A stretch of DNA of 64,000 nt, taken from NCBI GenBank assembly GCA_964476835.1, contig CAYZCE010000002.1, positions 100,652-164,651 of the forward strand, read 5' to 3'. How positions within the stretch are numbered: the stretch's first letter is position 1; each line of letters opens with the position of its first letter. This document shows, piece by piece, positions 9,518 through 50,482 of this stretch. Source of the stretch: an uncultured Rhodospirillaceae bacterium (GTDB taxonomy: Bacteria > Pseudomonadota > Alphaproteobacteria > Micavibrionales > UBA2020). A program made the position numbers and the translations under genes. A model generated the notes under the pieces. The model was given only the letters and a program-made list of their open reading frames with translations. It was not told the origin of the DNA and did no database searches.

Positions 9518-11527
9518 TTACTTCCAGAAACGCATGGCCGAGAGCGTATCGGTCTTGTCGTCCGTCCACGCCACGCCTGCATCGCCAGCGGCGGCGCTCC
9601 ATGTTGCAGGAGGCAATGCCGCAAGGGTGGCTTCATCGCGCGCCATCGCCACCCACAGCGCCGCGCCGGGGAACGGGAAGTCGCCATGCACAAGCCGCAC
9701 GCTCAGCCCCATCTCGCGCGCCGCGGCGACCAGCGGGCGGTCGAGGTCGAAATAGCGGTTGACGAGGTGGAACAGGATAATGCCGCGCGGCGTCAGGCGG
9801 TCGAGATATGTCGCGATCGCCTCGCGCGTCAGCAAATGCGTCGGCACCATGCCGGACAGGAAGGCATCCATGATGATGAGGTCGAAGCTGCCCGCATCGG
9901 GCTTCTGCATCTCCAGCCGCGCGTCGCCTTCGATGATGCGCGGCGTGCCGCAGGCGGTGAAATAGTCGAAGTCGCGCCGCGCGGATTCCGACACGGTCGG
10001 GTTAATCTCGAAGAACGTCACGTCGCGTCCCGGCGCGGCCAGGCAATCGAGAATTCCCGCGCCCAGCCCCACGACTGCGATATGCTGCGGCGCAGCTGCG
10101 GCGAGCGCATCGTTGACCACGCCGCGCGGGTCGTAATCCTTCATCGCCAGCGCGGCGCCGCCGGGCACGCGGCGCTCGAAGCCGTAGGTGCTGGCGCCGC
10201 TCTGCATCAGGCGGACGACGCCGCGCGGGCCGGTGCGGTCATAGACCTTGAGCGCACCGTAGAAATTGCGCGCATAGGCCGTATCGTGGATTTTTGAAAG
10301 ATAAGCGTCGCCGCCCAGCGCGCCCGCAAGCACCGCTACTACAAGCACACGCGCCCAGACGCGCCCCGGCACGATGAAACACGCGGCCGCCAGCAGCAGC
10401 GGGTATTCAAGGGGATGATCAAACAGCAGCGGCGCGGCGAAAGCGACGAAAGCCCCGCCGAGCGCGCCGCCCAGCGCGATCATCAAGTAAAACTCGGTCA
10501 GCCGCGATGCATCTTCCGCCGGACGCAGGGCCGCAAGCCTTGTGTGGCACGCCAGCGCCGCCGTTCCGAAGGCCAGCAAGTGCAGCGCGCACAGCCCCGC
10601 GATCACGCCGACCGGCGCCGTGTAGCTGCTGAGGAAACTGCTGTTCGGCAGCACGCCCGCATGCGGCTCCAGCACTGCCAGCACCAGCGCGGCGGCGGCG
10701 AGGAACGGCTGCAGGGCCGCGGCCCACCCATGACGCCCGTCACGCGCGAAAGCGGCGACAAACGTCAGCAGGTAAAGGCCGAGCGGCAAGACCCAAAGCA
10801 GCGGCACCGCCGCGATATCCGTCGTCATGTGCGCCGTGACCGCCAGCACCAGCGCGGAAGGAAAGAACGCGAGCGCGACCCATTCCAGCCGCCGCTTCAT
10901 GCCGATGCGCAGGGACGGTTTTGCAATCTCAACACTGCGCCCCGCCGCCGCAAGACAAAGCACAGCCAGCACGATCAGCGCCGCATAACCGGCAGTCCAT
11001 GCGGCAGCCTGAACCTTCAACCCGACATGTCCGTCGAAGAGAAAGACATAGGCAAACAGCCCGACGAAGCTGCCAAGATTGCTCGCCGCATAAAGAAAGT
11101 ACGGATCGCGCGCTTGCGCGGCGGCGAAAAGACGCTGCAAGGTCGAGGCGGAAGCCGAGAGCGCGACGAACGGCGCACCCGCCGCCACGCACAGCAACGC
11201 AAAGACCGCCTCCGGCGTCAGCGCCGCCGGTGCAGCAAGCGCGACCGGCAAGGCCGTCGCGCCAGAAACCAGCACCGCGATATAAGCTCCCGCCTGCACA
11301 CGCGGCGAAAACCGCCCGAGCAGGTACGCGAGAAAATACCCGGCCAGCAGCGCCGCCTGGAAGAACGCGAGCGCCACCACCCAGCCCGCCGGCGTGCCGC
11401 CAACCAGCGGCAGCAGCATGCGCCCGATCATCGGCTGCAGGCAAAACATCAACGCCGCGGAGAGGAACAGGGCGCCGCCGAACAAGACCGGCATCCCCAT
11501 CCCCGATTTTAAACGATTCATCCCCAT
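9518..11527 (-). CDS. Polytopic membrane protein fused to a C-terminal spermidine-synthase-like (class I methyltransferase fold) domain
   Basis: About 420 aa of repeated hydrophobic helices, then VVGLGAGILD...FFEINP...DLIIMDAF...PTHLLTREA, which is a SpeE-like pattern. The start is uncertain, with candidate ATGs at 11527, 11521 and 11497. Confidence 0.7.
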   Translation of the reverse strand: MGMNRLKSGMGMPVLFGGALFLSAALMFCLQPMIGRMLLPLVGGTPAGWVVALAFFQAALLAGYFLAYLLGRFSPRVQAGAYIAVLVSGATALPVALAAPAALTPEAVFALLCVAAGAPFVALSASASTLQRLFAAAQARDPYFLYAASNLGSFVGLFAYVFLFDGHVGLKVQAAAWTAGYAALIVLAVLCLAAAGRSVEIAKPSLRIGMKRRLEWVALAFFPSALVLAVTAHMTTDIAAVPLLWVLPLGLYLLTFVAAFARDGRHGWAAALQPFLAAAALVLAVLEPHAGVLPNSSFLSSYTAPVGVIAGLCALHLLAFGTAALACHTRLAALRPAEDASRLTEFYLMIALGGALGGAFVAFAAPLLFDHPLEYPLLLAAACFIVPGRVWARVLVVAVLAGALGGDAYLSKIHDTAYARNFYGALKVYDRTGPRGVVRLMQSGASTYGFERRVPGGAALAMKDYDPRGVVNDALAAAAPQHIAVVGLGAGILDCLAAPGRDVTFFEINPTVSESARRDFDYFTACGTPRIIEGDARLEMQKPDAGSFDLIIMDAFLSGMVPTHLLTREAIATYLDRLTPRGIILFHLVNRYFDLDRPLVAAAREMGLSVRLVHGDFPFPGAALWVAMARDEATLAALPPATWSAAAGDAGVAWTDDKTDTLSAMRFWK

Positions 11528-11652
11528 GCGCCGAGAATAACAGAAAATCCTGCCGATTCCTGCCCTTACCCGCCCCACCCCCCGCTTTTTTGAAAGAAGC
11601 TTGACAGAAAGCCCCCGGCAGGGCATAAATCCGTCTCTTAAAAAGACCGTGT

Positions 11653-19015: not shown

Positions 19016-20131
19016 TTACGGCTTCGGTCCCTGGATCGTGCCGACCTTGAAGAGCAGCTTCACCTGCGCCTTGGCGTATTCATCCTTCATGCGGTCGACA
19101 AGGTCATGCACGCTCGGCGTGTCATGGATGCTGCCGACGCCCTGGCCGGCCGACCAGACCTTGTTCCAGCTGGCGGCTTCCTTCTCGACGGCCTTGCCGA
19201 TGAGCTTCGACTTCAGCTTGGCGGCTGCCTTCTTGAAATGCTTGCTGAGCAGCTTCTGGCCGGTTTGGTTGACAGCGGCGACGATCTTGCTCCACGTGCT
19301 CGGCTTGCCCGGCGACATCTTGCCGGTGTTGGGGCCCGCCTTGCGCAGGTCCTCGATGTTGTAGCCCGCTTCGGCGAGGCTCTTGTCGATGAAGTTCGCC
19401 GGTACGCCGCTGATCACGGAGGTGTAGACGAGGTCGGCGGCTGCGGCGTCGACGATCATCTTCTTGTGTTCGGGGTTGGCGCCCGCTTCGACGGTGCTGA
19501 TAAAGCGCGTACCCATGTAGGCGAAATCGGCGCCCATCGCTTGCGCGGCAAGGATGTCGCCGCCCGAAGTCATCGCGCCGGAAAGGATGAGGAGGCCGTC
19601 GTAGAACGAGCGGATCTCGTCGATCAGCGCGATCGGGTTCATGGTGCCCGCGTGGCCGCCGGCGCCCGCTGCGACCGCGATGATGCCGTCGACGCCCGCC
19701 GCGATCGCCTTCTTGGCGTGTTCGGCATTGGTGACGTCGTGCAGCACGATGCCGCCGTAGGAATGGATCGCGTCGATGACGTCCTGCTTGAGGCCGAGCG
19801 AGGTGATGACGACCGGCACCTTGTGCTTGACGAAGAGCGCGACGTCGGCCGGGCAGCGCGGGTGCTGCAGGATCAGGTTGACCGCATAGGGCGCGATGGT
19901 CTTGCCCGGGTTTTGCGCGCGTAAGTCGTCGACGCCTTTGTTCATCTCGACCAGCCACTTTTCAAGTTCTTCCGAAGTGCGCTGGTTGAGCGCGGGGAAG
20001 CTGCCGACGACGCCTTCCGCGCACGCGGCCAGCGCCAGCGTCGGGTTCGAGACAAGGAACATCGGCGCCATGATGAGAGGCAGGTCGGTCTTCGATTTCA
20101 GGGTCTGGGCGGGAGTCGACATGGGTTTCAT
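19016..20131 (-). CDS. Nitronate monooxygenase / NAD(P)H-dependent flavin oxidoreductase (371 aa)
   Basis: NMO (2-nitropropane dioxygenase) pattern: PLIMAPMFLVS, GAGGHAG, GADFAYMGTRF. Confidence 0.8.
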   Translation of the reverse strand: MKPMSTPAQTLKSKTDLPLIMAPMFLVSNPTLALAACAEGVVGSFPALNQRTSEELEKWLVEMNKGVDDLRAQNPGKTIAPYAVNLILQHPRCPADVALFVKHKVPVVITSLGLKQDVIDAIHSYGGIVLHDVTNAEHAKKAIAAGVDGIIAVAAGAGGHAGTMNPIALIDEIRSFYDGLLILSGAMTSGGDILAAQAMGADFAYMGTRFISTVEAGANPEHKKMIVDAAAADLVYTSVISGVPANFIDKSLAEAGYNIEDLRKAGPNTGKMSPGKPSTWSKIVAAVNQTGQKLLSKHFKKAAAKLKSKLIGKAVEKEAASWNKVWSAGQGVGSIHDTPSVHDLVDRMKDEYAKAQVKLLFKVGTIQGPKP

Positions 20132-21954: not shown

Positions 21955-22081
21955 TCTACATAATCCTCCGCGATTTTTGGCGCGGTCTCCATGTGTTCTC
22001 TTTTATTTTCTGTGGCTTGAGCGTACTATCTTCCGTCGAACAGTGTCGACTGTTTTCCACCTCGAGAGAAAGATTCAAAAT

Positions 22082-22615
22082 ATGGATTCAACGACGAAAA
22101 AGGGCGGCACGCGCCGCGATTTCCTGTACCTGACGGCAGGCGCGATGGGCGCGGTCGGCGCAGGCTCCGCTTTGTGGCCATTCGTGGACAGCATGAACCC
22201 CGCCGCCGACACGCTGGCGCTGGCGACCGCGGAAGTCGACATCAGCAAGGTCGAGGTCGGCTCCGCCATCACCGCCGTCTGGCGCGGCGCGCCGGTCTTC
22301 ATCCGCCACCGCACCGCGGACGAGATCGCGCAAGCGCGCGCCGTCAGCATGGACGAGCTGCGCGACCCGCAAACCGACGAACAACGCACCAAGAAGCCCG
22401 AATGGCTGATCGTCAAGGGCGTCTGCACGCATCTCGGCTGCATCCCGCTCGGCACCAAGCCCGGCCAGCCGCGCGGCGATTTCGGCGGCTGGTTCTGCCC
22501 CTGCCACGGCTCGCACTACGACACCGCCGGCCGCATCCGCAAGGGACCGGCGCCCAAGAACCTGCTCGTCCCCGCTTATGAATTCGTGACCGACACGCTC
22601 GTTCGCATCGGCTAA
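22082..22615 (+). CDS. petA: Ubiquinol-cytochrome c reductase Rieske iron-sulfur subunit (177 aa)
   Basis: Tat-like TRRDFLY, and Rieske boxes CTHLGC and CPCHGSHYD. Confidence 0.95.
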
Positions 22616-22633
22616 TTTAGAGGAATAAACGCA

Positions 22634-23887
22634 ATGGCTGCTTCCAAGGAAAAATTCGACAACCAGGTCGTGCAGTGGATCAACGACCGCCTGCCGATCT
22701 TCTCGATGATGAACAACGAGTACGGCAAGTTCCCGACCCCGAAGAACTTCAACTACTTCTGGAACTTCGGCGCGATCGCGATGGCCATGCTGGGCATCAT
22801 GATCCTCTCGGGCATCTTCATGGCAATGAACTACGCGCCCAACTCCGGCCTCGCCTTCTCGAGCATCGAGCGCACCATGCGCGACGTCAACTACGGCTGG
22901 CTGCTGCGCTACATCCACATGAACGGCGCGTCTTTCTTCTTCGTCGCCGTCTACGTGCACATCTTCCGCGGCCTCTACTACGGATCGTATAAAAAGCCGC
23001 GCGAGCTGGTGTGGATCTTCGGCGTCGTCATCATGCTGCTGATGATGGCCACCGCCTTCATGGGCTACGCGCTGCCGTGGTCGCAGATGTCGGGCTGGGG
23101 CGTGACCGTCATCACCTCGCTCTTCTCCGCGATCCCGCTGGTGGGCGACAGCCTCGTCACCTGGCTGTGGGGCGGCTTCTCGGTCGACAACCCGACGCTC
23201 AACCGCTTCTTCGCGCTGCACTTCCTGCTGCCGTTCGTGATCTGCGCGGTCGTGTTCGTGCACGTCTGGGCGCTGCACGTGACCGGGTCCAACAACCCGA
23301 CCGGCGTCGAGCCGAAGTCGGAGAAGGACACCATCCCCTTCCACCCCTACTACACCACCAAGGACAGCTTCGGCACCGTTGTGTTCTTCATCGCGTTTGC
23401 GGCAGTCGTGTTCTTCGCGCCGCTCGCGCTGACCGAACCCGACCACTTCAAGATGTTCGACCCGATGCAGACGCCGCCGCACATCGTGCCGGAATGGTAC
23501 TTCCTGCCGTTCTACGCGATCCTGCGCGCCTTCACGCTCGACATCTCGATCCCCTTCACGCACATCATCCTGCTGCCGGCAAAGCTGCAGGGCGTCATCG
23601 CGATGTTCGGCTCGATCATCCTCTTGATGTTCCTGCCGTGGCTTGACACCTCGCCAGTGCGCTCCGCGCGCTACCGCCCGGTCTACAGGAAGTGCATGTA
23701 CGCGCTGGTCGTCGCGATGGTGATGCTCGGCTACGCCGGCGCCAAGCCGCCGGAAGGCCCCGCCGTCTGGCTCGGCCGCATCGGCACGCTGTATTACTTC
23801 CTGCACTTCCTGGTGCTGGTTCCCTACCTGGGCAAAAAGGAAAAGACCCTGCCCCTGCCCAAGAGCATTTCCGAGGAGAACGCCTGA
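22634..23887 (+). CDS. petB: Cytochrome b (417 aa)
   Basis: [31 protein letters not shown]. Confidence 0.95.
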
Positions 23888-24639
23888 TGAAAAACCAAGC
23901 ATTGATCGCAGGCCTGCTCCTGACGCTCACCGCCGCACCGGCGCTGGCGAACGAAGAGGCGCTGCCGCACCAGAACTGGCCACACCAAGGCGTCTTCGGC
24001 ACCTATGACCGCGCAGCGCTGCAACGCGGCTTCCAGGTGTATAAGGAGGTCTGCGCGGCCTGCCACGCGATGCACTTCCTGTCGTACCGTGACCTGACCG
24101 CGCTCGGCTACACGGCCGACGAAGTCAAGGCCATTGCGGCCGAGAACACCGTCACCGACGGCCCCAACGACGACGGCGAGATGTTCGACCGTCCCGCCCT
24201 GCCGTCCGACCGCTTCCACTCACCGTTCAAGAACGACAAGGCCGCACGCGCCTCCAACGGCGGCGCGCTGCCGCCCGACCTCTCGCTGATCGTCAAGGCG
24301 CGCGAAGGCGGCGAAGACTACGTCTACGGCATCCTCACCGGCTTCGAGGACGCGCCCGCGGGCTTCGCGCTGCAACCCGGCATGAACTACAACAAGGTCT
24401 TCGCCGGCCACCAGATCGCGATGCCCAAGCCGCTGAACGACGGCCAGGTTTCCTATGCCGACGGCACCGCCAACACGACCGCGCAAGAAGCGCGCGACGT
24501 CGTCGAGTTCCTCGCATGGGCGGGCGAGCCGCACATGGAGCAGCGCAAGCAGATGGGCTTCAAGGTCATCCTGTTCCTGATCGCCTTCGCCGGCATCATG
24601 TACAACGCCAAGAAAAAACTGTGGTCGAAACTGAAATAA
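23887..24639 (+). CDS. petC: Cytochrome c1 (250 aa)
   Basis: Signal peptide, CAACHAM heme motif, GGALPPDLS, C-terminal TM anchor. The start overlaps the petB stop (TGATG). Confidence 0.9.
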   Translation: MKNQALIAGLLLTLTAAPALANEEALPHQNWPHQGVFGTYDRAALQRGFQVYKEVCAACHAMHFLSYRDLTALGYTADEVKAIAAENTVTDGPNDDGEMFDRPALPSDRFHSPFKNDKAARASNGGALPPDLSLIVKAREGGEDYVYGILTGFEDAPAGFALQPGMNYNKVFAGHQIAMPKPLNDGQVSYADGTANTTAQEARDVVEFLAWAGEPHMEQRKQMGFKVILFLIAFAGIMYNAKKKLWSKLK

Positions 24640-24640
24640 G

Positions 24641-26350
24641 ATGAGCGGAACCGAGATCCTGATACAGATCGCAGGCGGCGTGTGCCTGCTGCTCTGGGGC
24701 GTGCAGATGGTGTCCCAAGGCCTGAACAGGGCCTTCGGCACGATGCTGCGCCGCTTCATCTCGAACTCGACCAACAACAGCTTCAAGGCCTTCGGCGTCG
24801 GCATCTTCGTCACCGCCATCCTGCAAAGCTCGACCGCCACCTCGATGATCGTCAGCTCGTTCGCGGCGCGCAGCGTCATCACCGTCTCGGCGGCGCTGGC
24901 CGTCATGCTCGGCGCCGACGTCGGCACCACGCTGGCGGCGCAGTTCATGTCGCTGAACCTGTCGTGGATGGCGCCGGCCCTCATCATCACGGGCTATATC
25001 GTCGCCAAGTCGTTCGCCGACAGCCCGTACAAGCACGTCGGCCGCGCGCTGGTCGGCATCGCGCTCGCCCTGCTCTCGCTCAAGCTGATCTCGGGCGCGG
25101 CGGAGCCTCTCAAGCATTCCGACGCGCTGCGCGCGCTGGTCGAGCCCCTCGGCACCCAGCCGATCCTCGCGATCCTCGTCTCCGCGCTGCTGACCTGGAT
25201 GGTGCACTCCAGCCTCGGCATGGTGCTTTTGTATATGAGCTTCGTCGGTTCGGGCACCGTGCCGGTCGAACTCGGCCTCTACCTCGTGCTCGGCGCCAAC
25301 CTGGGCGGCGTGATCGCGCCCGTCGTCATGACGATGCGCGACAACCCCGCCGGCCGCCGCGTGCCGCTCGGCAACCTGCTGACGCGCGCCGTCGGCGTGG
25401 CGCTGGTCGTGCCGTTCATGGCGCACGTCATCCTGCCCGCGATCGAGAGCGTGCACCCCGACCCCGCGCGCATGCTCATCAACTTCCATACCGCCTTCAA
25501 CGTGGTGCTCGCCATGGTCTTCCTGCCCTTCGCCAAGCCGCTGACGCGGGTGAGCGAAGCCGTGCTGCCCGACCGTCCGCGCGAGGAGGATGAACTCCTG
25601 CCGCGCTACCTCGACCCCGCCGCCGTCTCCAACCCGCCCGCGGCGCTCGCCTGCGTGGTGCGCGAGACGCTGCGCGTCTGCGATATCGTGCAGCGCATGC
25701 TGCGCGACACGCTGGAATCCTTCCGCGTCAACAACCCGCGCCTCGTGCAGGCGATCCGCGAGAAGGAAACCATCGTCGATAGCCTTTATGAGTCGATCAA
25801 GATCTACCTCGCCCGCGTCGGCGTGCAGGAGCTGAGCCCGGAAGAGAGCCGCCGCTACATGCAGATCCTGACCTTCTCGACCAACCTCGAGCATGTCGGC
25901 GACATCATCGACAAGAGCCTGATGGAAATGGCGATGAAGAAGATCCGCAACCAGGACAATTTCTCCCGCCAGGGCTTCGCCGAGATCGCCGAGCTGCACG
26001 GCCTCGTCATGGAGAGCCTGCAGGTGGCCCAGAACGTCTTCATGACCGGCGACGTCGGCATGGCGCGCAAGCTGTTCCAGGGCAAGGCCGTCCTGCGCAC
26101 ACACGAGATCGACGCCGCCGAAAGCCACTTCAAGCGCCTCAGCGAAGGCATCGCCGAGACCATCGCGACCTCGAGCCTGCACCTCGACATCCTGCGCGAC
26201 CTGCGCCGCATCAACAGCTACATCTCGCTGATCGCCTACCCGATCCTCGAGGCCGCCGACGCCTTCAACCCGCACCTCAAGGCCGCGCCGGTGCGCGAGA
26301 AACTGCTGCCCGCCGCACCCGCCGAATCCCCGCTGCCGGAGAAATACTGA
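24641..26350 (+). CDS. Na/Pi-cotransporter II-related family protein with a C-terminal PhoU-like domain (569 aa)
   Basis: Duplicated QSSTATS / GANLGG-type cotransporter repeats, and C-terminal PhoU-like helices. It starts 1 nt after the petC stop. Confidence 0.8.
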   Translation: MSGTEILIQIAGGVCLLLWGVQMVSQGLNRAFGTMLRRFISNSTNNSFKAFGVGIFVTAILQSSTATSMIVSSFAARSVITVSAALAVMLGADVGTTLAAQFMSLNLSWMAPALIITGYIVAKSFADSPYKHVGRALVGIALALLSLKLISGAAEPLKHSDALRALVEPLGTQPILAILVSALLTWMVHSSLGMVLLYMSFVGSGTVPVELGLYLVLGANLGGVIAPVVMTMRDNPAGRRVPLGNLLTRAVGVALVVPFMAHVILPAIESVHPDPARMLINFHTAFNVVLAMVFLPFAKPLTRVSEAVLPDRPREEDELLPRYLDPAAVSNPPAALACVVRETLRVCDIVQRMLRDTLESFRVNNPRLVQAIREKETIVDSLYESIKIYLARVGVQELSPEESRRYMQILTFSTNLEHVGDIIDKSLMEMAMKKIRNQDNFSRQGFAEIAELHGLVMESLQVAQNVFMTGDVGMARKLFQGKAVLRTHEIDAAESHFKRLSEGIAETIATSSLHLDILRDLRRINSYISLIAYPILEAADAFNPHLKAAPVREKLLPAAPAESPLPEKY

Positions 26351-26913
26351 TGGCTCCGGCCCAGCCGAAACTCCTGCCGCCGGCGCCGCAACCGACGCAG
26401 GCGGAAATCGACATGTTCGTCGCCGCCACGCGCGACAACCGCATCGCCGAAGTGGCCGCAACGCTCAACCGTTTCGGCACAGCCATCATCGACAAGCGCG
26501 CCACCGACAAGGACACCGCACTGAGCTGGGCGGCGTGGCTCGGATATGAAGAGATGACCAAGATGCTGCTGGACCGCGGCGCCGACATCAACCTGGGCGA
26601 GCGCGAAGGCCGCACGCCGCTCCATTGCGCGGCGCAGACCAACCGCCCGAAGATCGCCGAAATCCTGATCGAACGCGGCGCGCGCCTCGATATTCGCGAC
26701 GACAGGGGCCGCACGCCGCTCCAGGTCGCCGAAGAATTCAAGCGCACCGCCATCATCGCAGCCATCCGCGCGCGCGAAGCCGCGCTTGAGCGCCGGAAGC
26801 AAGAACGGCTCCGGCAGGAAGAGGAAGCCCGGCAGGCCGTGCGGCGCGATGCCCTCCTGAAAGCCGCAAAACCCCGGCACAAACCCTTCAAGAACAAGCC
26901 GCCGAAGCCATGA
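26350..26913 (+). CDS. Ankyrin-repeat protein, paralogue 1 of 4 (187 aa); C-terminal tail PFKNKPPKP
   Basis: ANK repeats (DTALSWAAWLGYEEMTKMLLDRGADIN, GRTPLHCAAQTNRPKIAEILIERGARLD, GRTPLQVAEE). N-terminal motif QPTQAEIDMFVAA. The ATG overlaps the upstream stop (TGATG). Confidence 0.85.
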   Translation: MAPAQPKLLPPAPQPTQAEIDMFVAATRDNRIAEVAATLNRFGTAIIDKRATDKDTALSWAAWLGYEEMTKMLLDRGADINLGEREGRTPLHCAAQTNRPKIAEILIERGARLDIRDDRGRTPLQVAEEFKRTAIIAAIRAREAALERRKQERLRQEEEARQAVRRDALLKAAKPRHKPFKNKPPKP

Positions 26914-27446
26914 GCACCCAGCCCACGCAAAGCGACATCAACGCCTTCTGCACCGCCGCGCAACGCGGACAGCTTGTGGACGTGGCTGAGTTCCTGGCCA
27001 CGTTCGGCGACGCCATCGTCAACGGCATCGACAATGTCAGGAATACCGCCCTGACCTGGGCGGTGTGGAACAACCATAGGGCCGTCGTCGAGCTGCTGCT
27101 GGCCAACGGCGCGGACGTCAACCTGCCGGAAGCCTCCGGCTATACGCCGCTGCACTGCGCGGTGCAGGCGAACAAGCCGGAACTCGCCGAACTGCTGCTT
27201 GCCCACGACGCAGACATCGACAAGCGCGACAACAACAACCGCACGGCGCTGATGTTCGCCGAACAGCTCCATCGCGACGCCGTCGCCGCCGTGCTCCGCA
27301 TCCGCCCGGGCGAGCTGGAACGCCAGAAGCGCGAAAAAGAGGAGCAGGCGCGCAAGCTCGAGGAATTCAAGCAGGCGCAGATGGACAAGCTGAAGAACGC
27401 GAAGCCGAAAGGTCCCGGCTTCAAGAACAAGCCGCCGCACCCATGA
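26910..27446 (+). CDS. Ankyrin-repeat protein, paralogue 2 of 4 (178 aa); C-terminal tail GFKNKPPHP
   Basis: NTALTWAVWNNHRAVVELLLANGADVN and GYTPLHCAVQANKPELAELLLAHDADID. N-terminal motif QPTQSDINAFCTAA. ATGA overlap with paralogue 1. Confidence 0.85.
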   Translation: MSTQPTQSDINAFCTAAQRGQLVDVAEFLATFGDAIVNGIDNVRNTALTWAVWNNHRAVVELLLANGADVNLPEASGYTPLHCAVQANKPELAELLLAHDADIDKRDNNNRTALMFAEQLHRDAVAAVLRIRPGELERQKREKEEQARKLEEFKQAQMDKLKNAKPKGPGFKNKPPHP

Positions 27447-28033
27447 CCGCCCAGCCCGCATCGCCGAAACCGCAGCCGACGCAGGAAGACATCAACACCT
27501 TCTGCCTCGCCGCACGCGACAACAAGATCGCCGAGATCGCCAAGGCCATCGCCGCTTTCGGGGCCGGCATCGTCAACATGCCCGACTATCTCGGCGACAC
27601 CGCCCTCAGCTGGGCCGTGTGGGGCGCGCATATGCCATTGATGGCCTTGCTGCTCGACAACGGCGCCGACATCGACCAGCCCGAGCGCGCCGGCCAGGCG
27701 CCGCTGCACTGCGTATCGCAGGCCGTCAAGCTCAGCGATATCGAGCGGGCCCTGGTCGTCAACCTGTTGCTGGAACGCGGCGCGAGCCTCGACCCCGTCG
27801 ACCACAACGGACGCACGCCGCTGGCGCTCGCCGAGCATAACAAGTGCAAAGTCGTCGCCGACCTTCTCCGCGCGCATCAGGAGACGTTGCGCCGCCAAGC
27901 GGAAGAGGCTTGCCGGAAAGAGATGGAGCGCGCGCAAAAGGAAGACGCCGAACGGCTGGCCCGCCTGCAGTCCGTTCGCGATGCCGCGCCGCAAAAATCG
28001 CCGTTCAAGAAGAACAAGCCGCCGAAGCCATGA
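27443..28033 (+). CDS. Ankyrin-repeat protein, paralogue 3 of 4 (196 aa); C-terminal tail PFKKNKPPKP
   Basis: DTALSWAVWGAHMPLMALLLDNGADID, GQAPLHCVSQ, GRTPLALAEH. N-terminal motif QPTQEDINTFCLAA. ATGA overlap with paralogue 2. Confidence 0.85.
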   Translation: MTAQPASPKPQPTQEDINTFCLAARDNKIAEIAKAIAAFGAGIVNMPDYLGDTALSWAVWGAHMPLMALLLDNGADIDQPERAGQAPLHCVSQAVKLSDIERALVVNLLLERGASLDPVDHNGRTPLALAEHNKCKVVADLLRAHQETLRRQAEEACRKEMERAQKEDAERLARLQSVRDAAPQKSPFKKNKPPKP

Positions 28034-28581
28034 GCATCCCGCAGCCCGTCACGTCCAAGCAGCCGACGCAGGAAGACATCGACTTTTTCTGCGAAGCAGC
28101 GTTCTACGGCGAATGCGCGAAGATGGCGGAGCTGCTTGCCGAATTCGGCGGCGCGATCGTGAATGCGCGCGACAAGACCGGCGACACCGCGTTCAGCTGG
28201 GCCGTCTGGCTCGGCTTTGAAGACATGTTCGACCTGCTGCTCCGAAACGGCGCCGATATCGACCTTGCCGAAAGCACGGGGCGCACGCCGCTGCATTGCG
28301 CGATACAGTCCAACTATCCCCACCTCGTCCGCCGCCTGCTGGATCTCGGCGCGGATGCCGGCACCCCGGACGCTGACGGACTGACGCCCCTGCAAGTCGC
28401 CGAGAAGTTCAAGCGCAAGGACATCGTCGCCATCCTCGGCGCGCACGCAGCCGGGCAACAGCGCCTGAAGGAAGAAGCCGTGCATCGGGAAGAAACCGCG
28501 CGGCAGAACCGCCTCGAATCCCTGCAACAAGCCGCGCCGCGCGCCGCGCCCTTCAAGAAGAACAAGCAGCCCCGCCCATGA
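28030..28581 (+). CDS. Ankyrin-repeat protein, paralogue 4 of 4 (183 aa); C-terminal tail PFKKNKQPRP
   Basis: DTAFSWAVWLGFEDMFDLLLRNGADID, GRTPLHCAIQSNYPHLVRRLLDLGADAG, GLTPLQVAEK. N-terminal motif QPTQEDIDFFCEAA. ATGA overlap with paralogue 3. The ORF-track start at 27844 is an upstream extension. Confidence 0.85.
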   Translation: MSIPQPVTSKQPTQEDIDFFCEAAFYGECAKMAELLAEFGGAIVNARDKTGDTAFSWAVWLGFEDMFDLLLRNGADIDLAESTGRTPLHCAIQSNYPHLVRRLLDLGADAGTPDADGLTPLQVAEKFKRKDIVAILGAHAAGQQRLKEEAVHREETARQNRLESLQQAAPRAAPFKKNKQPRP

Positions 28582-29087
28582 GCACCATCCGCCGCGCCAC
28601 GATTGCCGACCTCGACGCGCTCCATGCCATCGCGCGCGACATGCGCGCGCACCACGAGCCGGGGTATTTCGAGCGCTGCCTCGCCGAAATAGCCAGCGGC
28701 AAGCGCGACGTGCTGATGATGATCGGCGATGACGGAAGCGCCGCGGGCTACGTACAGATGATCTGGCAGCCACTCTACGCGCCGTTCCGCCGCCTCGGCA
28801 TCCCCGAGATACAGGACCTCAACGTCGTGCCCGCCGCGCGGCGGCAAGGCTTCGGCGCGCAGCTGGTCGCGGCATGCGAACGTATGGCGCAAGAACGCGG
28901 ACACACATCCGTAGGCATCGGCGTCGGCCTGCACGCCGCTTTCGGCGCGGCGCAGCGCCTTTACGTGCGCGCGGGCTACATACCCGACGGCGCAGGCGTC
29001 GCCTACGACGACGACGGCGTCACCGCGCACGACGTGCGACCGATCGACGACCTGCTCACGCTCAAGCTTGTCAAGGACCTCGCTTAA
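28578..29087 (+). CDS. GNAT-family N-acetyltransferase (169 aa), last gene of the pet/ank string
   Basis: Motif A VVPAARRQGFGAQLV and the LYVRAGY tail. ATGA overlap with ank paralogue 4. Confidence 0.8.
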   Translation: MSTIRRATIADLDALHAIARDMRAHHEPGYFERCLAEIASGKRDVLMMIGDDGSAAGYVQMIWQPLYAPFRRLGIPEIQDLNVVPAARRQGFGAQLVAACERMAQERGHTSVGIGVGLHAAFGAAQRLYVRAGYIPDGAGVAYDDDGVTAHDVRPIDDLLTLKLVKDLA

Positions 29088-37509: not shown

Positions 37510-40500
37510 TTAGAAATTGCCTGTCACGCGAATGACGCCGGCATGGGCGCTGAAGTCTTCCTTGCGCTCGTAGTCGTAAGCGGCGGAGACCGTCAGGTCA
37601 GCGGCGTCGAGATAGGAAAGCCCCACGCCCGCGTTGACCGTGCCGCGTGCGGGTGACGCGCCTTCGACCGCGAAGGAAGCGCCGCCGCCGGTGAAGCCGG
37701 CGGTCGTCTGCATCCTGTCACCGATCAGGTCGTAGCGGTAGCCGGCGTGCACGGACGGCTGCCAGAGGGTGCCGTCGGACTTGATGTCCCAGCGCGCTGT
37801 CGCGGTGGCGCCCAGCTCGGCCTTGTCGAGGCTCTCGCCCCTGACGGTCAGGCCTGCGCCGCCCGCACCGGTTTCGGTATAGCCCGCCGGTGCGTAGTGC
37901 ATGTAGTCGGCGATGACCGCCGGCGTCAGCACAGCGCCGAAGGCGGCGTCCGTCTTGTACGCACGGCCTGCTTCGGCACGCGCCCAGTACTGGTTGGCAT
38001 GTGTATCGCCATAGGCCGACACGCCCGGCGCGCCGACGTTGCGGCGGGTCGTGCTGATGTCGTTATAGCTATACGCCACAAGGCCGCGCAGGTAGGTCGC
38101 CGCGTCGAAATCCATTTCGCCGTAGAGCGAGGCCTGGTAGCTGTCGATGGTGGAGGACGTCTGGTTGACATTCTTCGCATCCACGTCGGTGTTGCCGTAG
38201 CTGAGCGCAAATCCGGCATAACCGTCCGCGGAACGTCCGCTGTTGTCCGCGCCGATCACCGCGCCGTAGGTGCGCGCGCGGTAGCCGTCGGTCGCGCCGC
38301 CGCCGTCGCTGCGCGCGTCTTGCTTGGCGTATTGGCCGAAGCCCTGCACCCAGGCGCGCTGGCCATGGCTGCCCGAACCCGCCGACAGGCCCGACGCGCC
38401 CGCATCCGCCATCATCACCGGCGCATGCGCGTTGATGAGCTGGAAGGTGCTGTTGGCGACATCGGTGATGCCCGTCAGGATGCCTTCGCCCGTATCCGGC
38501 AGGACGGACGCCAGTGCCGCGTTGACGCCTGCCGCCGTGCCCGCGCCGTTGACCGCGGCTTGCGCCGCCTGCAGGTTTGCATCGTTGGTGGAAAGGCCCA
38601 TCAGCACGTCGCCGGCCGCGGCGTTATTGCGGTTGCTCGCGGTGTCGGCGACGGTATGCGCCTGCGCGACCTCGATGAAGAGGTCGCTGGCATCTGTCGG
38701 CGCCGCGGCCACGGTGCCGTTGAAATACGTGAAGTCCCACAGGTACGAATTGTCCTGGATCGCCGTCGGTGTCGCGCCTGGCCCGCCGGTGATGCTGGCC
38801 GCATCGACGATCTTGAACTGCGCGCCGTCCGTCGGCGCCGTGCTGCCGACCGCGACGGTCAGCGTCGTGTCGGTCAGGTCAAGCGCGCCCGCCGTGACAA
38901 GCGCGCCCGCCGCCGCGCCGGAGACGCCGAAGGTGAAGGTGTTGGTCAGGCTGCCCGTGACCGTGGCGGCGGTCAGCGTGTCGCCCGCGCCGATTTTCGC
39001 AGTGCCGTCATTGGTGAAGACGAAGGCCGCCGCATCATGGCCGTGCGTGTCGAAGGAAATGCCGGCGTCGATCTCGATCGTGCCGACATCGATGTCGCCG
39101 CCCGCCGAGAAGTTCTTGGCGACTTCGACCGTCGAGTAGTTCTGCGTCGGGTCGTCGTCGACGATGTCGCCGGTGACGGCGCCGCCGTTCAGGACAAGAC
39201 GCGCCGTGTCGGTCAGTCCCGTGAAGCTGACCGCCGTGCCGTCCGTGCCGGTAATGGAGCCGCCCGCATTATTGAAGATGACGACCGGGGCCGCCGCGTT
39301 CACGGCAAGGCCGACCACGCCGGCGATCGTGCCATTGTTGACGATGCCGTCCGCGCTGCCGTCGCCGATGGCGGCGCCGTCGACCAGCAGCGCCGTATCG
39401 CCGGCCGAGACGATCCTGCCGTTGTTGATGAGGTTGCCGCCGATCACGCCGCCCGTGCCGATGGATACCTGTCCGTCCAGCAGGCCGTTGTTCGTCAGGT
39501 CGTTGGTGACGGTGCCGCCGGCATGGAGGTCGATGCTGTGCAAGTCGCCGGACATGGTGCCGTCGTTTTCAAGGCTGTCGATGGTGCCGCCGAAAGCCAT
39601 CGACAGGCCGGACAGGCCGCCGAAGATGCTGGCGCCCTTCGCGTTCACCAGCCCGTGGCCGGCGGCGAGCGACGAGCCGCTGGCCAGCACGATGCCCGAG
39701 CCGTTGCCGCCGCTGATCGACCCTTCGTTGATGATGTCGCCCGCGATCGGCGCGCCGACCGAGGTCAGGTTGAGGCCGTTGGTGCCGCCTTCGATGGCGC
39801 CGCTGTTGTGGATGTTGCCCGTGATGGTCGAGCCCGCAGAGACCTGCACGCCGTCGCCCGTGCCGCCGATGATCTGGCCTGCGTTTTCAAGCGGTCCGCC
39901 GAGCGTCGAGGTGTTGGTGATCAGGAGGCCGGTGACGCCGCCTTCGATCGTGCCTTTCTTGGTGTTGGTGAGGCCGTCGCGGACGTTGCCGTTCTCGCCC
40001 ATGCGGATGCCGTTGTCGGCGGTGCCGCCGATGGTGCCGCTGTTGTAGATCATCCCCTTGATGCTGGTGCCGCCGCTCGGGCTGGTCAGGTAAAGGCCGG
40101 TGGCAGAGCCGCTGAGGGTGCCGGAGTTGATGAAGTCGCCGTCGATATAGCCGCTGTTGTTGGTGATGACGGCGCTGCCGGCGGTCGCGGTGATCGTGCC
40201 CTTGTTGTTGACGTCGCCGGTGAAGGTGCTGCCGTTGGTGACGATCAGGCCGGCGGTGGTGCCGGTGATCGCGTCCGTGTTGGAAAGACCGCCCGTCAGG
40301 TCGGAGCCGTTGGTGACCTCGATGCCGCTGCCGGCGGTCGCCGTCACCGTGCCGCCGTTGGAGATGCCGCCTGCCAGCGTGCTGGCGTTGGTGAGCGAGA
40401 TGCCCGCCGTCGCGCCCGTCACCGAACCGGTGTTGGAAATGCCGCCGTTGATGATGCCCGTCCCCGACTCGATTCCGTAGGTGGTGCCGGCGATGGAACC

Positions 40501-40755
40501 ATGCGACGTGATGGAGCCTACCGTGACGGTATCCACGAAGACGCCCTGCGTGCCGCCGGAGATGTCGCCGCTCTTCTTGACGATCAGGTTATTGCCCGCG
40601 CCCAGCAAGACCGGTCCCGTCACCGTGGCGCTCACCGTCGTATCCGCGGCTTGCGCGGCAGGCATCAAGGCCAGGAGGCCGATGACGGCGGTGGTGGAAA
40701 CCAGGATCTTCTTGGAGGACATCGACAACATGTAAAGAGCGCTCCTTTTTTTCAT
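37510..40755 (-). CDS. Autotransporter (type Va) with a long Gly/Thr/Asn-rich beta-helical passenger and a C-terminal beta-barrel (1081 aa)
   Basis: Signal peptide ...LLALMPAAQA. Dozens of degenerate G-x-I-x-G/N-x-G-T-I repeats. The C-terminal barrel ends ...AHAGVIRVTGNF (terminal Phe). Confidence 0.85.
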   Translation of the reverse strand: MKKRSALYMLSMSSKKILVSTTAVIGLLALMPAAQAADTTVSATVTGPVLLGAGNNLIVKKSGDISGGTQGVFVDTVTVGSITSHGSIAGTTYGIESGTGIINGGISNTGSVTGATAGISLTNASTLAGGISNGGTVTATAGSGIEVTNGSDLTGGLSNTDAITGTTAGLIVTNGSTFTGDVNNKGTITATAGSAVITNNSGYIDGDFINSGTLSGSATGLYLTSPSGGTSIKGMIYNSGTIGGTADNGIRMGENGNVRDGLTNTKKGTIEGGVTGLLITNTSTLGGPLENAGQIIGGTGDGVQVSAGSTITGNIHNSGAIEGGTNGLNLTSVGAPIAGDIINEGSISGGNGSGIVLASGSSLAAGHGLVNAKGASIFGGLSGLSMAFGGTIDSLENDGTMSGDLHSIDLHAGGTVTNDLTNNGLLDGQVSIGTGGVIGGNLINNGRIVSAGDTALLVDGAAIGDGSADGIVNNGTIAGVVGLAVNAAAPVVIFNNAGGSITGTDGTAVSFTGLTDTARLVLNGGAVTGDIVDDDPTQNYSTVEVAKNFSAGGDIDVGTIEIDAGISFDTHGHDAAAFVFTNDGTAKIGAGDTLTAATVTGSLTNTFTFGVSGAAAGALVTAGALDLTDTTLTVAVGSTAPTDGAQFKIVDAASITGGPGATPTAIQDNSYLWDFTYFNGTVAAAPTDASDLFIEVAQAHTVADTASNRNNAAAGDVLMGLSTNDANLQAAQAAVNGAGTAAGVNAALASVLPDTGEGILTGITDVANSTFQLINAHAPVMMADAGASGLSAGSGSHGQRAWVQGFGQYAKQDARSDGGGATDGYRARTYGAVIGADNSGRSADGYAGFALSYGNTDVDAKNVNQTSSTIDSYQASLYGEMDFDAATYLRGLVAYSYNDISTTRRNVGAPGVSAYGDTHANQYWARAEAGRAYKTDAAFGAVLTPAVIADYMHYAPAGYTETGAGGAGLTVRGESLDKAELGATATARWDIKSDGTLWQPSVHAGYRYDLIGDRMQTTAGFTGGGASFAVEGASPARGTVNAGVGLSYLDAADLTVSAAYDYERKEDFSAHAGVIRVTGNF

Positions 40756-40891
40756 CGCGACAAACTCCCGGCAGTCTAGCAGGAAGCCGGCGGGCATTGT
40801 CAATCAAACGCGATGCAGCAACGCCTTTTGATGGTTGCTGACGGCTTGCTTACGGGGAAATACGTCAAAGATTTTCTATATCGAAAAACCC

Positions 40892-42592
40892 TTAGCCGCT
40901 GTTCGCCACGCGGCGGATGACGCCGTTGAGCTGGTCGACGTCCTGCGCGGCTTTTTGCATGGTGTTGGAAATGTCCTTGGTCACCACGCTCTGCTCCTCG
41001 ATCGCCGAGGCGACGGCGTTGACGGACATGCTGACGGAATCGGTCGCCTGCTTGATGGAGAGCGATGCTTCCGCCGCCTGCGTCGACATCTGCTGCAGGA
41101 TGGTGATCTTGGCGGAGATGTCTTCCGTCGCCTTGCTGACCTGGTTGGCGAGGTTCTTGACTTCCGACGCCACGACGGCGAAGCCCTTGCCTGCCTCGCC
41201 CGCACGCGCCGCCTCGATGGTGGCGTTGAGCGCGAGCAGGTTGACCTGCCCCGCGATGTCGTCGACCAGATGCACGACCGACTGCATGGAGACCGTGGTG
41301 CTGCGCAGCGAATCCATCAGGTCGTTGGCGACCTTGATCTTCTGCGCGATGTCGCTGACCGACGTGTTGGAGTTCTGCATGTTGTGGCCGATCTCGCCGA
41401 TGGCCGCGGTCAGTTCTTCCGCCGCGGCGGCGATGGAGGAGACGCTTTCGCGCATGCCTTCGGTCAGCCGCGCCGATTCCACGCGCGCCGACATCTGCGA
41501 GGTGATGTCGGTCGCGTACTTGACGACCTTGAACGGCTTGCCGTTCATGTCGAGGATGGGGTTGTAGGAGGCGACGATCCACACCTCGCGCCCGCCCTTG
41601 GCCATGCGCCTGAATTCGCCGGCCTGGAACAGCCCCTTGTTCAGCTTCGCCCAGAATTCCTTGTATTCCGCACTGCGCGCGTATTCTTCATCCGCAAAGA
41701 GGCTGTGATGGCGCCCTTGAATCTCCCCGAGGCTGTAGCCGAGGGTGTTGAGGAAGTTCTGGTTCGCATCGATGATGGTGCCGTCGAGGTTGAAGTGGAT
41801 CACGGCCTGCGATTTGCCGATCGCGTCGATCTGGCCTTCGTAGTCGGCGTTCTTGAGCTTCTGGCCGGTGATATCGGTTGCGTACTTGACGACCTTGAAG
41901 GGCTTGCCGTTCATGTCGAAGATGGGGTTGTAGGACGCGAGGATCCACACTTCCTTGCCGTTCTTGCCCTGGCGCTTGTACTCGCCGGCCTGGAACTGCC
42001 CCTTGTTGAGGTTTGTCCAGAATTCCTTGTACGCGGCGCTCTGCGCGTAATCGGGCGCGGCGAACATGCTGTGATGCTGCCCCTGGATTTCCTCGAGGCT
42101 GTAGCCCATGACGTCGAGGAAGTTGAGGTTGGCGTTGATGACGGTGCCGTCGAGGTTGAAGTGGATGACGGCCTGCGAGCGGCCGATCGCGTCGATCTGG
42201 CCTTCGTGGTCGGCGGTCTTCAATTTCTGGTCGGTGATGTCGGTCGCGTACTTGACGACGAAGGCGACCTTGCCCGTACTGTCGATCACGGGATTGTAGG
42301 AAGCCTCGATCCACACTTCCTTGCCGCCTTTGGCGAAGCGCTTGTATTGCGCGACGCTGTGCTGGCCCTTGCGCAGGCTTGCCCAGAAGCCCTGATACTC
42401 CGGCGATCCCGCATAGCCCGGATCGACGAAAGTCGAATGGTGGCGGCCCTTGATCTCGTCGAGCGCGTACCCCATCACCGAAAGGAAGTTCTTGTTCGCG
42501 TCGATGATCTTGCCTTCCGGCGTGAAGCGGATGACGGCGTGCGACTTGTCGAGCGCGTGAAGTTCCGACGTGCTGTCGTTCTTGAAAAACAT
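40892..42592 (-). CDS. Soluble methyl-accepting chemotaxis protein with three tandem PAS domains (566 aa)
   Basis: Three ~122-aa PAS units (...[20 protein letters not shown].......EFW..L.KG....[32 protein letters not shown]), then the MCP signalling domain ([31 protein letters not shown]). There is no TM segment. Confidence 0.85.
41500..42592 (-). repeat. Three in-frame ~366-bp tandem units (the PAS-coding repeats) inside the MCP gene
   Basis: The string GGTGAT(G/A)TCGGT(C/T)GCGTACTTGACGAC recurs near 41501, 41866 and 42231, which gives a period of about 366 bp. Confidence 0.7.
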
Positions 42593-42712
42593 CTCGATTT
42601 TCTCCCCCTTGAAAAAAACAAACCAACCCGCATCAAGTCTGTCAGAACGGATGCGGACGTCAATTCGTTTTTTGCCGTACGCATGTGTGCGGACACACGA
42701 TCGCACTCACGC

Positions 42713-48569: not shown

Positions 48570-48725
48570 TAGATAAGGACAAGAGTCAAGCACGTCAGGA
48601 TGGCCCCGGCGACGGCTATTGACGCCGCCGGCTTTCCTCCATACAATCCTCGATTGCATGATGAGTATTTCACAACTTTAAGTGGATAGCCGTCACGGCA
48701 AAAAAGGGGAATGGGGGTTCTCTCA

Positions 48726-50093: not shown

Positions 50094-50098
50094 ACACC

Positions 50099-50482
50099 AT
50101 GGCCATCACACCCGCCACCATGCGCGTCCTGATCGTCGACGATTACAAGACGATGCTGACGATCATCCGCAACCTGCTCAAGCAGATCGGCTTCAGCGAC
50201 ATCGACGAGGCCACCGACGGCGGCGCGGCGCTCGGCCTGATCGGGCAGAAACCTTACGACCTCGTCATCTCCGACTGGAACATGGAGCCGATGACCGGGC
50301 TCGACCTGCTCAAGGCCGTGCGCGAAAAAGGCAACAAGGTGCCCTTCATCATGGTCACCGCCGAGAGCAAGGTGGAGAACGTCGTCGCCGCCAAGCAGGC
50401 GGGCGTCAACAACTACATCGTCAAGCCGTTCAACGCCGACACGCTGAAGGCCAAGCTGGTCGCGACGCTGGGGCAGTTCTGA
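50099..50482 (+). CDS. cheY: Chemotaxis response regulator CheY (127 aa)
   Basis: VLIVDD, DLVISDWNMEPMTG, VKPF. Confidence 0.9.
   Translation: MAITPATMRVLIVDDYKTMLTIIRNLLKQIGFSDIDEATDGGAALGLIGQKPYDLVISDWNMEPMTGLDLLKAVREKGNKVPFIMVTAESKVENVVAAKQAGVNNYIVKPFNADTLKAKLVATLGQF

Follow-up and report, generated by a model that had tools for sequence, protein, structure and literature searches.

To our knowledge, the cytoplasmic functions of bacterial ankyrin-repeat (ANK) proteins are almost unknown outside pathogens. In effectors of intracellular bacteria, namely the Dot/Icm Ank proteins of Legionella and Coxiella, Anaplasma AnkA and the Orientia Anks, ANK repeats are combined with a hydrophilic, positively charged C-terminus and no Sec signal. 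Bd3460 of Bdellovibrio is a small ANK protein that acts as a stoichiometric binder within the producing cell and, according to PMC4686830, neutralizes the predator's own DD-endopeptidases. Here, we analyzed a stretch of 64,000 nucleotides (nt), hereafter the window, from contig CAYZCE010000002.1 of an uncultured Rhodospirillaceae bacterium, in which four consecutive genes, ank1–ank4, encode small proteins with the same combination of ANK repeats, positive C-terminus and no Sec signal as the effectors listed above, and for which stoichiometric binding within the producing cell, as in Bd3460, is proposed. We tentatively read ank1–4 as cytoplasmic adaptors, in which a diversified ANK head would be joined through a rigid charged helix to a tail that anchors electrostatically to a polyanionic surface; we regard this as a serious possibility, though one that falls short of probable.

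The list of open reading frames (ORFs) and a Pfam scan both confirm the four tandem + strand ANK genes, with their sizes, that had been described in a first-pass annotation of the sequence, the products being 187, 178, 196 and 183 residues long, respectively. The start of ank4 is an internal ATG at 28030 inside a 245-residue ORF that begins with GTG and spans 27844–28581. The genes and their parts are as follows.

26350–26913, + strand: ank1 (Pfam, AlphaFold2, Foldseek, charge analysis), with a disordered Pro/Gln N-terminus (residues 1–16), ANK repeats (17 to about 145), a long helix (133–173) and a basic tail (174–187), tail PRHKPFKNKPPKP, net charge +5
26910–27446, + strand: ank2, architecture as ank1, tail PKGPGFKNKPPHP
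27443–28033, + strand: ank3, architecture as ank1 plus 6 inserted residues in repeat 3, tail PQKSPFKKNKPPKP
28030–28581, + strand: ank4, architecture as ank1, tail PRAAPFKKNKQPRP

The Pfam models Ank, Ank_2, Ank_4 and Ank_5 score above their gathering thresholds in all four proteins (E-values of 1e-9 to 1e-21), with 38–68 bits for Ank (PF00023, cut-off 21.1) and 45–78 bits for Ank_2 (PF12796, cut-off 27.3). The four proteins align end to end at 45–48% pairwise identity, with 46 invariant columns. All motifs quoted in the first-pass annotation are located, namely QPTQ-x-[DE]-I-[DN]-x-F-[CV]-x-A-A at the N-terminus, G[RYQ][TA]PLHC in the repeats and the tails PFKNKPPKP, GFKNKPPHP, PFKKNKPPKP and PFKKNKQPRP. 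That annotation had placed the proteins in no characterized family beyond ANK, and scans with Pfam, NCBIfam and PADLOC likewise match nothing else; it had also seen no signal peptide or transmembrane segment, in agreement with our Kyte–Doolittle profiles of ank1–4, which contain neither a transmembrane segment nor a signal-peptide core (maximum 19-residue mean ≤1.35). The codon-position GC content of the four genes is coding-like (0.82–0.87 at third positions, GC3, and 0.39–0.49 at second positions, GC2; window GC 64%), and the long antisense ORFs over the array are the usual shadows of high-GC DNA. In addition, the four-gene array is identical in three independent Logan assemblies (SRR8931239, SRR8931241 and SRR8931242), and a family hidden Markov model detects no fifth copy in the 64-kb window.

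The structure of ank1 was predicted with AlphaFold2 on an 8-sequence family alignment (mean predicted local distance difference test score, pLDDT, 90.6) and comprises the following elements.

Residues 1–16 and 174–187: disordered segments, the latter being the 14-residue tail with low pLDDT
Residues 17–28 and 32–47: helix pair 1, the N-terminal capping repeat
Residues 57–64 and 67–75: helix pair 2
Residues 90–96 and 100–108: helix pair 3
Residues 123–129 and 133–173: helix pair 4, the outer helix of which is a single continuous 40-residue helix

Counting the N-terminal cap, the model gives four ANK repeats per protein, in place of the three that had been counted from the sequence. The shared N-terminal motif is predicted to be the start of the ANK fold rather than a separate element: P-T-Q-x-[DE] is a Ser/Thr-x-x-Glu/Asp helix capping box, and I-[DN]-x-F-C-x-A-A forms the first cap helix, the counterpart of the LLEAAxxG with which most ANK domains begin. 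In a Foldseek search against the PDB, almost all of the top 50 matches are designed ankyrin repeat proteins (DARPins) or other ANK chains (E-value ~1e-7, root-mean-square deviation (rmsd) mostly 1.4–2.4 Å), and DARPin-type matches are also returned by a PDB sequence search of the ANK protein.

The outer helix of the last repeat continues into a segment that is 37–57% charged (0.50–0.57 in ank1–3, 0.37 in ank4) and at most 18% hydrophobic, with 3–10 opposite-charge pairs at i/i+4 and, in the best register, an occupancy of heptad a/d positions by LIVMFY of 0.20–0.30. A coiled coil was considered for this segment and rejected on the a/d hydrophobic occupancy (≤0.30) and hydrophobic fraction (≤0.18). 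The segment had been described as helical or coiled-coil; its helical character is retained in the AlphaFold2 model (residues 133–173), whereas the coiled coil is dropped, as there is no heptad core. As modeled, the charged helix looks like an ER/K-type single helix. The tails of ank1–4 that follow it carry a net charge of +3 to +5, four or five Pro residues and one Phe, and three of the four ANK heads, those of ank2–4, are acidic (–6 to –9). Within the head, DARPin-type surface positions are 26% identical among ank1–4 versus 47% at framework positions (permutation p = 0.011). By comparison, an Asp/Trp patch in repeat 2 is conserved, W63 being identical in 13 and D55 in 12 of the 14 family sequences described below. 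Judged from the alignment, a conserved patch on a diverged surface would fit a shared docking feature with diverged specificities.

The array lies in a string of co-directional genes on the + strand, for which the features below were recorded.

21977–24639, + strand: petA, petB and petC (Rieske protein, cytochrome b and cytochrome c1), names read from the sequences
24641–26350, + strand: Na/Pi cotransporter with a C-terminal PhoU-like domain (NCBIfam)
28578–29087, + strand: GNAT-family acetyltransferase (169 residues; Pfam Acetyltransf_1, E-value 2.3e-9), ATGA-coupled to ank4 and last of the string
26886–26924, 27419–27457, 28006–28044 and 28554–28592, + strand: junction repeat D3, comprising tail codons, CCATGA and the next N-terminus (repeat search, 69–90% identity)

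The end of the cytochrome b gene and the beginning of the c1 gene overlap as TGATG (23885–23889), and the c1 gene ends at 24639, one base before the start of the cotransporter. In the NCBIfam scan, the c1 ORF gives a sub-threshold match to di-heme cytochrome c peroxidase (20 bits, cut-off 150), and the cotransporter scores 225.6 bits with TIGR00704 (cut-off 210) and 152.9 bits with NF037997, its PhoU region covering residues 404–532. The cotransporter stop and the ank1 start overlap by 1 nt, as TGATG, and GGAG lies 9 nt 5' of the ank1 ATG, which makes ank1 the sole array gene with a Shine–Dalgarno motif. Each ank gene overlaps the next by ATGA, always as CCATGA, which the first-pass annotation had not mentioned, and the ank4/GNAT junction is of the same form. 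No Shine–Dalgarno motif is found at these four CCATGA junctions (ank1/2, 2/3, 3/4 and ank4/GNAT), and termination–reinitiation coupling is therefore implied. The start context of the GNAT gene, CCATGAGCACC, matches that of ank2. The GNAT is unrelated to the ANK proteins and gives only weak matches in NCBIfam (AAC(6'), PhnO and RimI). No promoter-like site is found on the + strand between 21500 and 29067, such matches appearing only past the GNAT gene, and terminator-like stem-loops are no commoner than in shuffled sequence (8 found, 7.2 expected), with none on the + strand between 22118 and 30075. The simplest reading of this organization is that petA, petB, petC, the Na/Pi cotransporter gene, ank1–4 and the GNAT gene form one transcription unit, whose last five cistrons (ank1–4 and GNAT) would be translated by termination–reinitiation. 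From petB onward, the genes of 21977–29087 are packed with gaps or overlaps of 0–4 nt, and it is unusual for a pet operon to combine the bc1 genes with those of a GNAT, four ANK proteins and a Na/Pi cotransporter that has a PhoU-like domain.

Searches for relatives reveal an ANK/charged-helix/basic-tail family that is real but rare. A genome-collection scan found members in several alphaproteobacterial metagenome-assembled genomes (MAGs) with a GC content of 56–60%, one of them labeled Micavibrio and one Patescibacteria; a metagenome-collection scan added one locus, identical to L010 (related loci carry L numbers), and a viral-collection scan for the family found nothing. Word-index protein searches, with a single protein or a 13-sequence alignment, returned mostly generic ANK proteins, the only true members being P0163, P0166, P0194 and P0261, of which the last three were contributed to the family set by these searches. 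A profile of the N-terminal part alone recovered one partial member, whereas a four-sequence profile run against 1.84 billion representatives was swamped by giant multi-ANK proteins and yielded no family information. The window ANK proteins are singletons at 90% identity, and no description of the family was found in Pfam, NCBIfam, PADLOC or the literature searched.

The 14 sequences of the family alignment are the 4 window proteins and 10 others, drawn from short metagenome contigs and from MAGs of Alphaproteobacteria. All have the following elements in one order: a Pro-rich disordered N-terminus, the capping box with FCxAAK, TAL[ST]WAAW in repeat 2, two more repeats, a charged helix of 27–35 residues, L-x-x-L-K-K-x-x-P and a basic tail. 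Just before the tail, P175 is invariant and L170 nearly invariant, and the tails of relatives read PPKLKF, PPKIKGF, PNFKLKK, APKIRLGPRP and PSLKKNPRPPK. Rather than lacking the N-terminal motif and the tail, the relatives keep both the capping motif and a basic tail, and both elements are therefore under protein-level selection. The suggestion that selection acts on these two short elements is upheld in this respect, but the N-terminal motif is a structural helix cap and not an independent signal.

The layout recurs in about ten genomes of uncultured Alphaproteobacteria, in which most loci hold one family gene; at L004 and L006, this gene is accompanied by another ANK gene that has diverged. 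The window copies form a clade in 500/500 neighbor-joining bootstraps, without a resolved internal order, and differ from each other by ~1 substitution per site. Recent duplication or gene conversion was considered and rejected, given this divergence and the lack of any repeat longer than 39 nt at ≥90% identity. On these sequence comparisons, the window array is an old lineage-specific expansion, and the four intact ORFs, the divergence and the lack of long identical tracts agree with the old, maintained array that had been perceived by eye.

With regard to mechanism, the tentative adaptor reading would work as follows. The four-repeat ANK head would bind a target through positions that have diverged between the copies, with the Asp/Trp patch of repeat 2 kept, and the ~40-residue charged single alpha-helix would act as a rigid spacer. 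The disordered Pro/Lys tail with its one aromatic residue would be an electrostatic anchor, most likely to the acidic inner face of the cytoplasmic membrane, and would hold the ANK head a few nanometers off that surface. Coupled translation would give four heads and the GNAT in fixed proportion, and the heads could each recruit different partners to one common site. As the surface bound by the tail, the inner membrane comes first in view of the transporter/respiratory operon and the membrane-protein neighbors, with polyphosphate and nucleic acid as alternatives. Beyond the gene coupling, fold, helix, tail composition, lack of a signal peptide, family conservation, expansion and surface divergence described above, the adaptor reading is supported by the co-directional, overlapping Na/Pi cotransporter in the window, by a convergent Kef-type Na/H exchanger beside the family gene in L008, L010 and L016, and by a convergent ABC transporter beside that in L004, with a homologous ORF in L006.

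Several observations weigh against this reading. Most transporter neighbors elsewhere are convergent and so not co-transcribed, and the neighborhoods are otherwise not conserved. Membrane binding is conjectural, and the tail has a single hydrophobic residue and several Pro. Furthermore, such tails also sit on soluble enzymes and may be a lineage-wide compositional habit without a specific target. The ratio of nonsynonymous to synonymous substitution (NG86 dN/dS) between the copies, 0.56–0.92, fits relaxed constraint as well as diversification, and is judged unreliable since codon bias (GC3 ~0.85) depresses dS and inflates the ratio.

Among the other explanations, it is rather unlikely that the four ANK proteins form a hetero-oligomer or chain, in which the Pro/Lys tail of one protein docks in the Asp/Trp patch of a sister's acidic head and coupled translation supplies equal amounts. 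The ATGA coupling of all four genes, the acidic heads (–6 to –9) opposite basic tails (+3 to +5), the conservation of the W63/D55 surface patch together with the tail across the family, and a rigid helix that prevents binding in cis would all suit such an assembly. However, most relatives are single-gene, so hetero-oligomerization cannot be the ancestral function; moreover, the tail is unbound in the monomer model, and in an AlphaFold2 prediction of an A1–A2 concatenate without alignment both tails have pLDDT <50 (predicted template modeling score 0.37), which is a weak negative.

It also appears rather doubtful that the tail binds another polyanion, such as polyphosphate, nucleic acid or the ribosome, and that the proteins act in phosphate or nucleoid physiology. 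The array runs in the same direction as the gene of a Na/Pi cotransporter that has a PhoU-like domain, and overlaps it; a Pfam-matched GDPD phosphodiesterase adjoins the L011 member, and ORFs read from their sequences as GDPD-like lie 2 kb upstream of the family gene in L005 and L007; and the L010 gene follows lon, an HU-like gene (names from ORF translations) and tRNA-Val. Lys/Pro/Ala tails also resemble histone-H1-like tails, of which that of AlgP is an example. These associations are nevertheless few and loose, with GDPD and HU outside the operon, the argument from the tail is compositional only, and no nucleic-acid-binding or polyphosphate-binding domain is present.

Tails of this kind are not confined to ANK proteins. 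Pro-rich basic C-terminal tails occur on 10 of the 92 non-ANK proteins in the related MAG loci versus 0.9% of internal 10-mers (binomial p ~1e-8), a significance exaggerated by the internal null, as C-termini are generally more disordered and basic than interiors. The tailed proteins are located as follows.

Window, 4445–5011, + strand: 188-residue protein of unknown function, ending PPPKFKP
Window, 19016–20131, – strand: nitronate monooxygenase, ending GPKP
L016, 3670–4674, – strand: tailed protein
L005, 5169–5840, 7465–7980 and 9944–11017: tailed proteins
L007, 12921–13739: tailed protein
L014, 17031–18929: tailed protein
L011, 8248–8976: tailed protein

Those of the MAG loci include a proline iminopeptidase (by sequence reading), the L011 GDPD, the GDPD-like ORFs of L005 and L007, and an acyl-CoA dehydrogenase/oxidase-family protein of L014, and their endings include KPPQP, TAPKP, PKGPQP, KQPKP, APKPPKAA and KKFKP. 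The ANK family therefore shares its tail composition with unrelated proteins. Two further ANK arrays elsewhere, diverged from the family, carry such tails too. It is conceivable, though we consider it improbable, that the C-terminal element (a short charged helix, Pro, and hydrophobic/basic alternation or a Pro-x-Pro end) is a portable localization or sorting tag of many unrelated proteins in this uncultured alphaproteobacterial lineage, of which the coupled ANK arrays would be the most elaborate cargo or adaptors.

Related to this, a non-ANK protein with an ANK-family-like C-terminus and no Pfam or NCBIfam match is encoded at 10968–11438 in L007 and at 11026–11583 in L005. Its C-terminus consists of a charged helix (KKMKAENRAKERERKK), Pro and alternating hydrophobic/basic residues (PVKPMKTIRIKPKE or IQIKPRE), which suggests that the C-terminal module shared with this protein may be portable.

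The first-pass annotation had raised the idea that the basic tail is an export signal of VirB/D4 type, and we find little to recommend the broader view that ank1–4 are substrates of this or another secretion system whose heads act on a host or prey. ANK repeats are a classic component of effectors, the related MAG loci are rich in ANK genes, with as many as 4 in 20 kb, and one of these MAGs is labeled Micavibrio, a genus of predatory bacteria. However, no gene of a type IV secretion system (T4SS), type IV coupling protein or type I secretion system is present among the window ORFs scanned or the annotated flanks of the related loci. The sole secretion-related gene among those window ORFs encodes an autotransporter, and the rest are housekeeping genes and a chemotaxis receptor gene; cytochrome bd and efflux genes also appear to be present, from a reading of the ORF list. 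The array itself is translationally coupled within a respiratory/transport operon and has native GC content and codon usage, and tails of a similar kind are found on housekeeping enzymes. The basic residues of the tail are Lys, whereas the Agrobacterium secretion signal reportedly relies on Arg (Vergunst et al. 2005). The NCBIfam T4SS_Ank (Dot/Icm) equivalogs score ≤53 bits against cut-offs of 450–1400 and match the ANK region alone, and ank1–4 (178–196 residues) are much smaller than the known ANK effectors and carry no effector domain such as F-box or FIC. With respect to charge, the last 25 residues of ank1–4 contain 6–10 H/R/K with a charge of +4 to +8, the highest in the window, and exceed the S4TE values for C-terminal charge and basicity of alphaproteobacterial type IV effectors (three or more H/R/K and a net charge of +2 or higher over these 25 positions; PMC3814349), but the same values are reached by 16/57 other window proteins and hence do not discriminate. 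The positive evidence for effector status thus comes down to domain type and charge, and the export-signal idea is unsupported at this locus.

Another explanation to which we assign a low probability is that the conserved gene ends reflect a constraint at the DNA level, through the overlapping stop/start, the reinitiation context or gene conversion at the boundaries, the tail itself being functionless. In this regard, the tail codons and the first codons of the next gene form a contiguous conserved 39-nt junction, that of the unrelated GNAT gene included; the terminal Pro codon is always CCA, as the CCATGA overlap requires; and identity at third positions reaches 0.87 for the tail and 0.91 for the capping motif, compared with ~0.7 as background. 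By comparison, relatives without a coupled downstream gene still have the capping motif, L-x-x-LKK-x-x-P and a basic tail, strong codon bias (GC3 0.85) accounts for most identity at synonymous sites, and there are no long identical tracts. Within the array, a DNA-level constraint is probably one reason why the tails are nearly identical, but it cannot account for those of relatives that lack a coupled downstream gene.

Least credible of all is an array of immunity or antitoxin-like inhibitors directed against the coupled GNAT or toxins encoded elsewhere. Immunity arrays typically consist of small tandem paralogs that have diverged and vary in their binding surfaces, the GNAT that is ATGA-coupled downstream has the size of a toxin (169 residues), and ANK immunity proteins such as Bd3460 are known. 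However, no toxin domain is adjacent, the neighbors being a generic GNAT and the Na/Pi cotransporter; the downstream GNAT is matched by generic acetyltransferase models alone, with no PADLOC match; and no GNAT was seen among the annotated neighbors of other family members. A TacAT/AtaRT-type pair would call for a ribbon-helix-helix/DUF1778 antitoxin directly upstream of a tRNA-acetylating GNAT toxin, but there is no such antitoxin here, and the genes upstream of the GNAT encode ANK proteins. In addition, no signal peptide is present on ank1–4 for export to a periplasmic target, and the conserved helix and tail are left unexplained. Known anti-phage defense was likewise rejected in the PADLOC scan, which returned nothing beyond similarity in the ANK region to PDC-M72A and to a generic Ankyrin model, and no matches for the partners.

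Conserved synteny was considered as a functional clue and rejected, as the neighbors of family genes differ between genomes. A large convergent unannotated gene lies beside the family gene in L015, an alpha/beta hydrolase gene lies downstream of it in L005, and the neighbors in L014 are an aldose epimerase and an EF-hand protein. In L007 and L010, a gap of 13–17 nt separates a tRNA-Val(TAC) gene from the family gene downstream of it; in L005, another gene lies in between. The tRNA genes have the following positions.

L005, 7369–7444: tRNA-Val(TAC)
L007, 7902–7977: tRNA-Val(TAC)
L010, 7865–7939: tRNA-Val(TAC)

The family gene may originally have stood behind tRNA-Val, and the two may be transcribed together. 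In L010, tRNA-Val follows ORFs read as clpX, lon and an HU gene, and the start of L015 also translates tRNA-like.

Arrays of two or three small ANK proteins, distant kin of the window family, are found in L014, L004 and L006. The second array of L014 (2375–4211) consists of three overlapping small ANK genes ending LRLKPAKLNKRAR, LKRISFKQRMAQ and LRPLALRKLA, and in L004 (1615–2696) and L006 (7462–8528) a diverged ANK protein ending PKP or PEP is paired with a family member. The genes overlap by ATGA, GTGA or 1 nt, and the products have a C-terminal helix and a basic tail. The family gene at 7953–8488 in L010 and 1335–1870 in L016 has the same apparent frameshift in two assemblies, with frame 1 ending ...KKERTMVCPSCCGARPN and the expected tail ...AELKKRTPPRLKF in another frame; the gene may be a pseudogene, the assembly may be at fault, or both assemblies may go back to one sample. 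In addition, the MAG labeled Patescibacteria, which has a frameshifted family gene, looks alphaproteobacterial in gene content.

Elsewhere in the window, an EpmA/GenX-like gene, a histone-deacetylase-family gene and a DinB-type polymerase gene are located at 45117–46313, 46277–47200 and 47246–48535 (all – strand). The first of these, which overlaps the histone-deacetylase-family gene and adjoins the DinB-type polymerase gene, encodes a class II lysyl-tRNA-synthetase paralog and scores 215 bits, under the equivalog cut-off of 287; modification of elongation factor P could matter for translation of the PP-containing tails. A 702-residue ORF at 9518–11626 (– strand) has no Pfam match, and in NCBIfam only a spermidine-synthase-like C-terminal region is matched (fused MFS/SpdSyn family). 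Pfam further identifies a 1097-residue autotransporter (37510–40803, – strand) and a triple-PAS chemoreceptor (40892–42706, – strand), and ORFs at 48711–55458 (+ strand) resemble a che gene cluster, by reading of the ORF list. The chemoreceptor and che-like genes suggest a motile lifestyle; neither they nor the autotransporter gene have an evident link to the ANK genes.

The locus presents a tractable case, with a compact conserved design repeated four times and translationally coupled in a respiratory/transport operon. If the tail is a true anchor or tag, a little-known alphaproteobacterial lineage would possess a targeting device of a new kind; if it is neither, the locus would be an ordinary lineage-specific ANK expansion. 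Either way, the array is a warning against reading an ANK domain with a basic C-terminus as a secreted effector, when a quarter of the ordinary proteins of the window pass the same charge test.

Our comparison with known systems reveals partial likenesses for each part of the design. Bd3460 is periplasmic and encoded beside its endopeptidase partner genes, and ank1–4 differ from it in having neither a signal peptide nor an endopeptidase-type enzyme partner. With ANK proteins that are anchored through a C-terminal membrane motif (the CaaX protein AnkB of Legionella and eukaryotic TIMAP/MYPT3) and with the MARCKS-type basic-aromatic effector domain, the ank proteins share the logic of an ANK head plus a short C-terminal element with possible attachment to an acidic membrane, and the FKKNK of ank3 and ank4 is identical to the end of the MARCKS effector domain; the ank tails have no CaaX box and one aromatic residue, and the likeness is by analogy only. 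Similar to the ER/K single alpha-helix spacers of myosin VI/X and caldesmon, the predicted ank helix is rich in E/R/K/Q, with opposite-charge pairs at i/i+4 and no hydrophobic seam, but it is shorter (27–34 residues beyond the ANK cap) and less regular, ank4 being only 37% charged.

The closest structural counterparts are DARPins and short ANK proteins (4GPM, 5ENQ_E and 2RFM), which, like ank1, adopt four stacked helix–loop–helix repeats with both caps; the Foldseek superposition of ank1 on DARPins gives an rmsd of ~1.7 Å over ~125 residues at 27–36% identity, and the variation among ank1–4 is concentrated at the surface positions that are randomized in DARPins. The obvious differences occur in repeat 2, which reads TALxWAAW in the ank family and TPLHLAA in DARPin-type proteins, and at the C-terminal cap, whose outer helix is prolonged in the ank proteins into the 40-residue charged helix and the basic Pro/Lys tail. 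The fold is an ordinary one, and what appears new, relative to Pfam, NCBIfam, PADLOC and the literature searched, is the design of ANK repeats, single helix and basic tail, its restriction to an uncultured alphaproteobacterial lineage and its four-fold coupled expansion in a pet operon.

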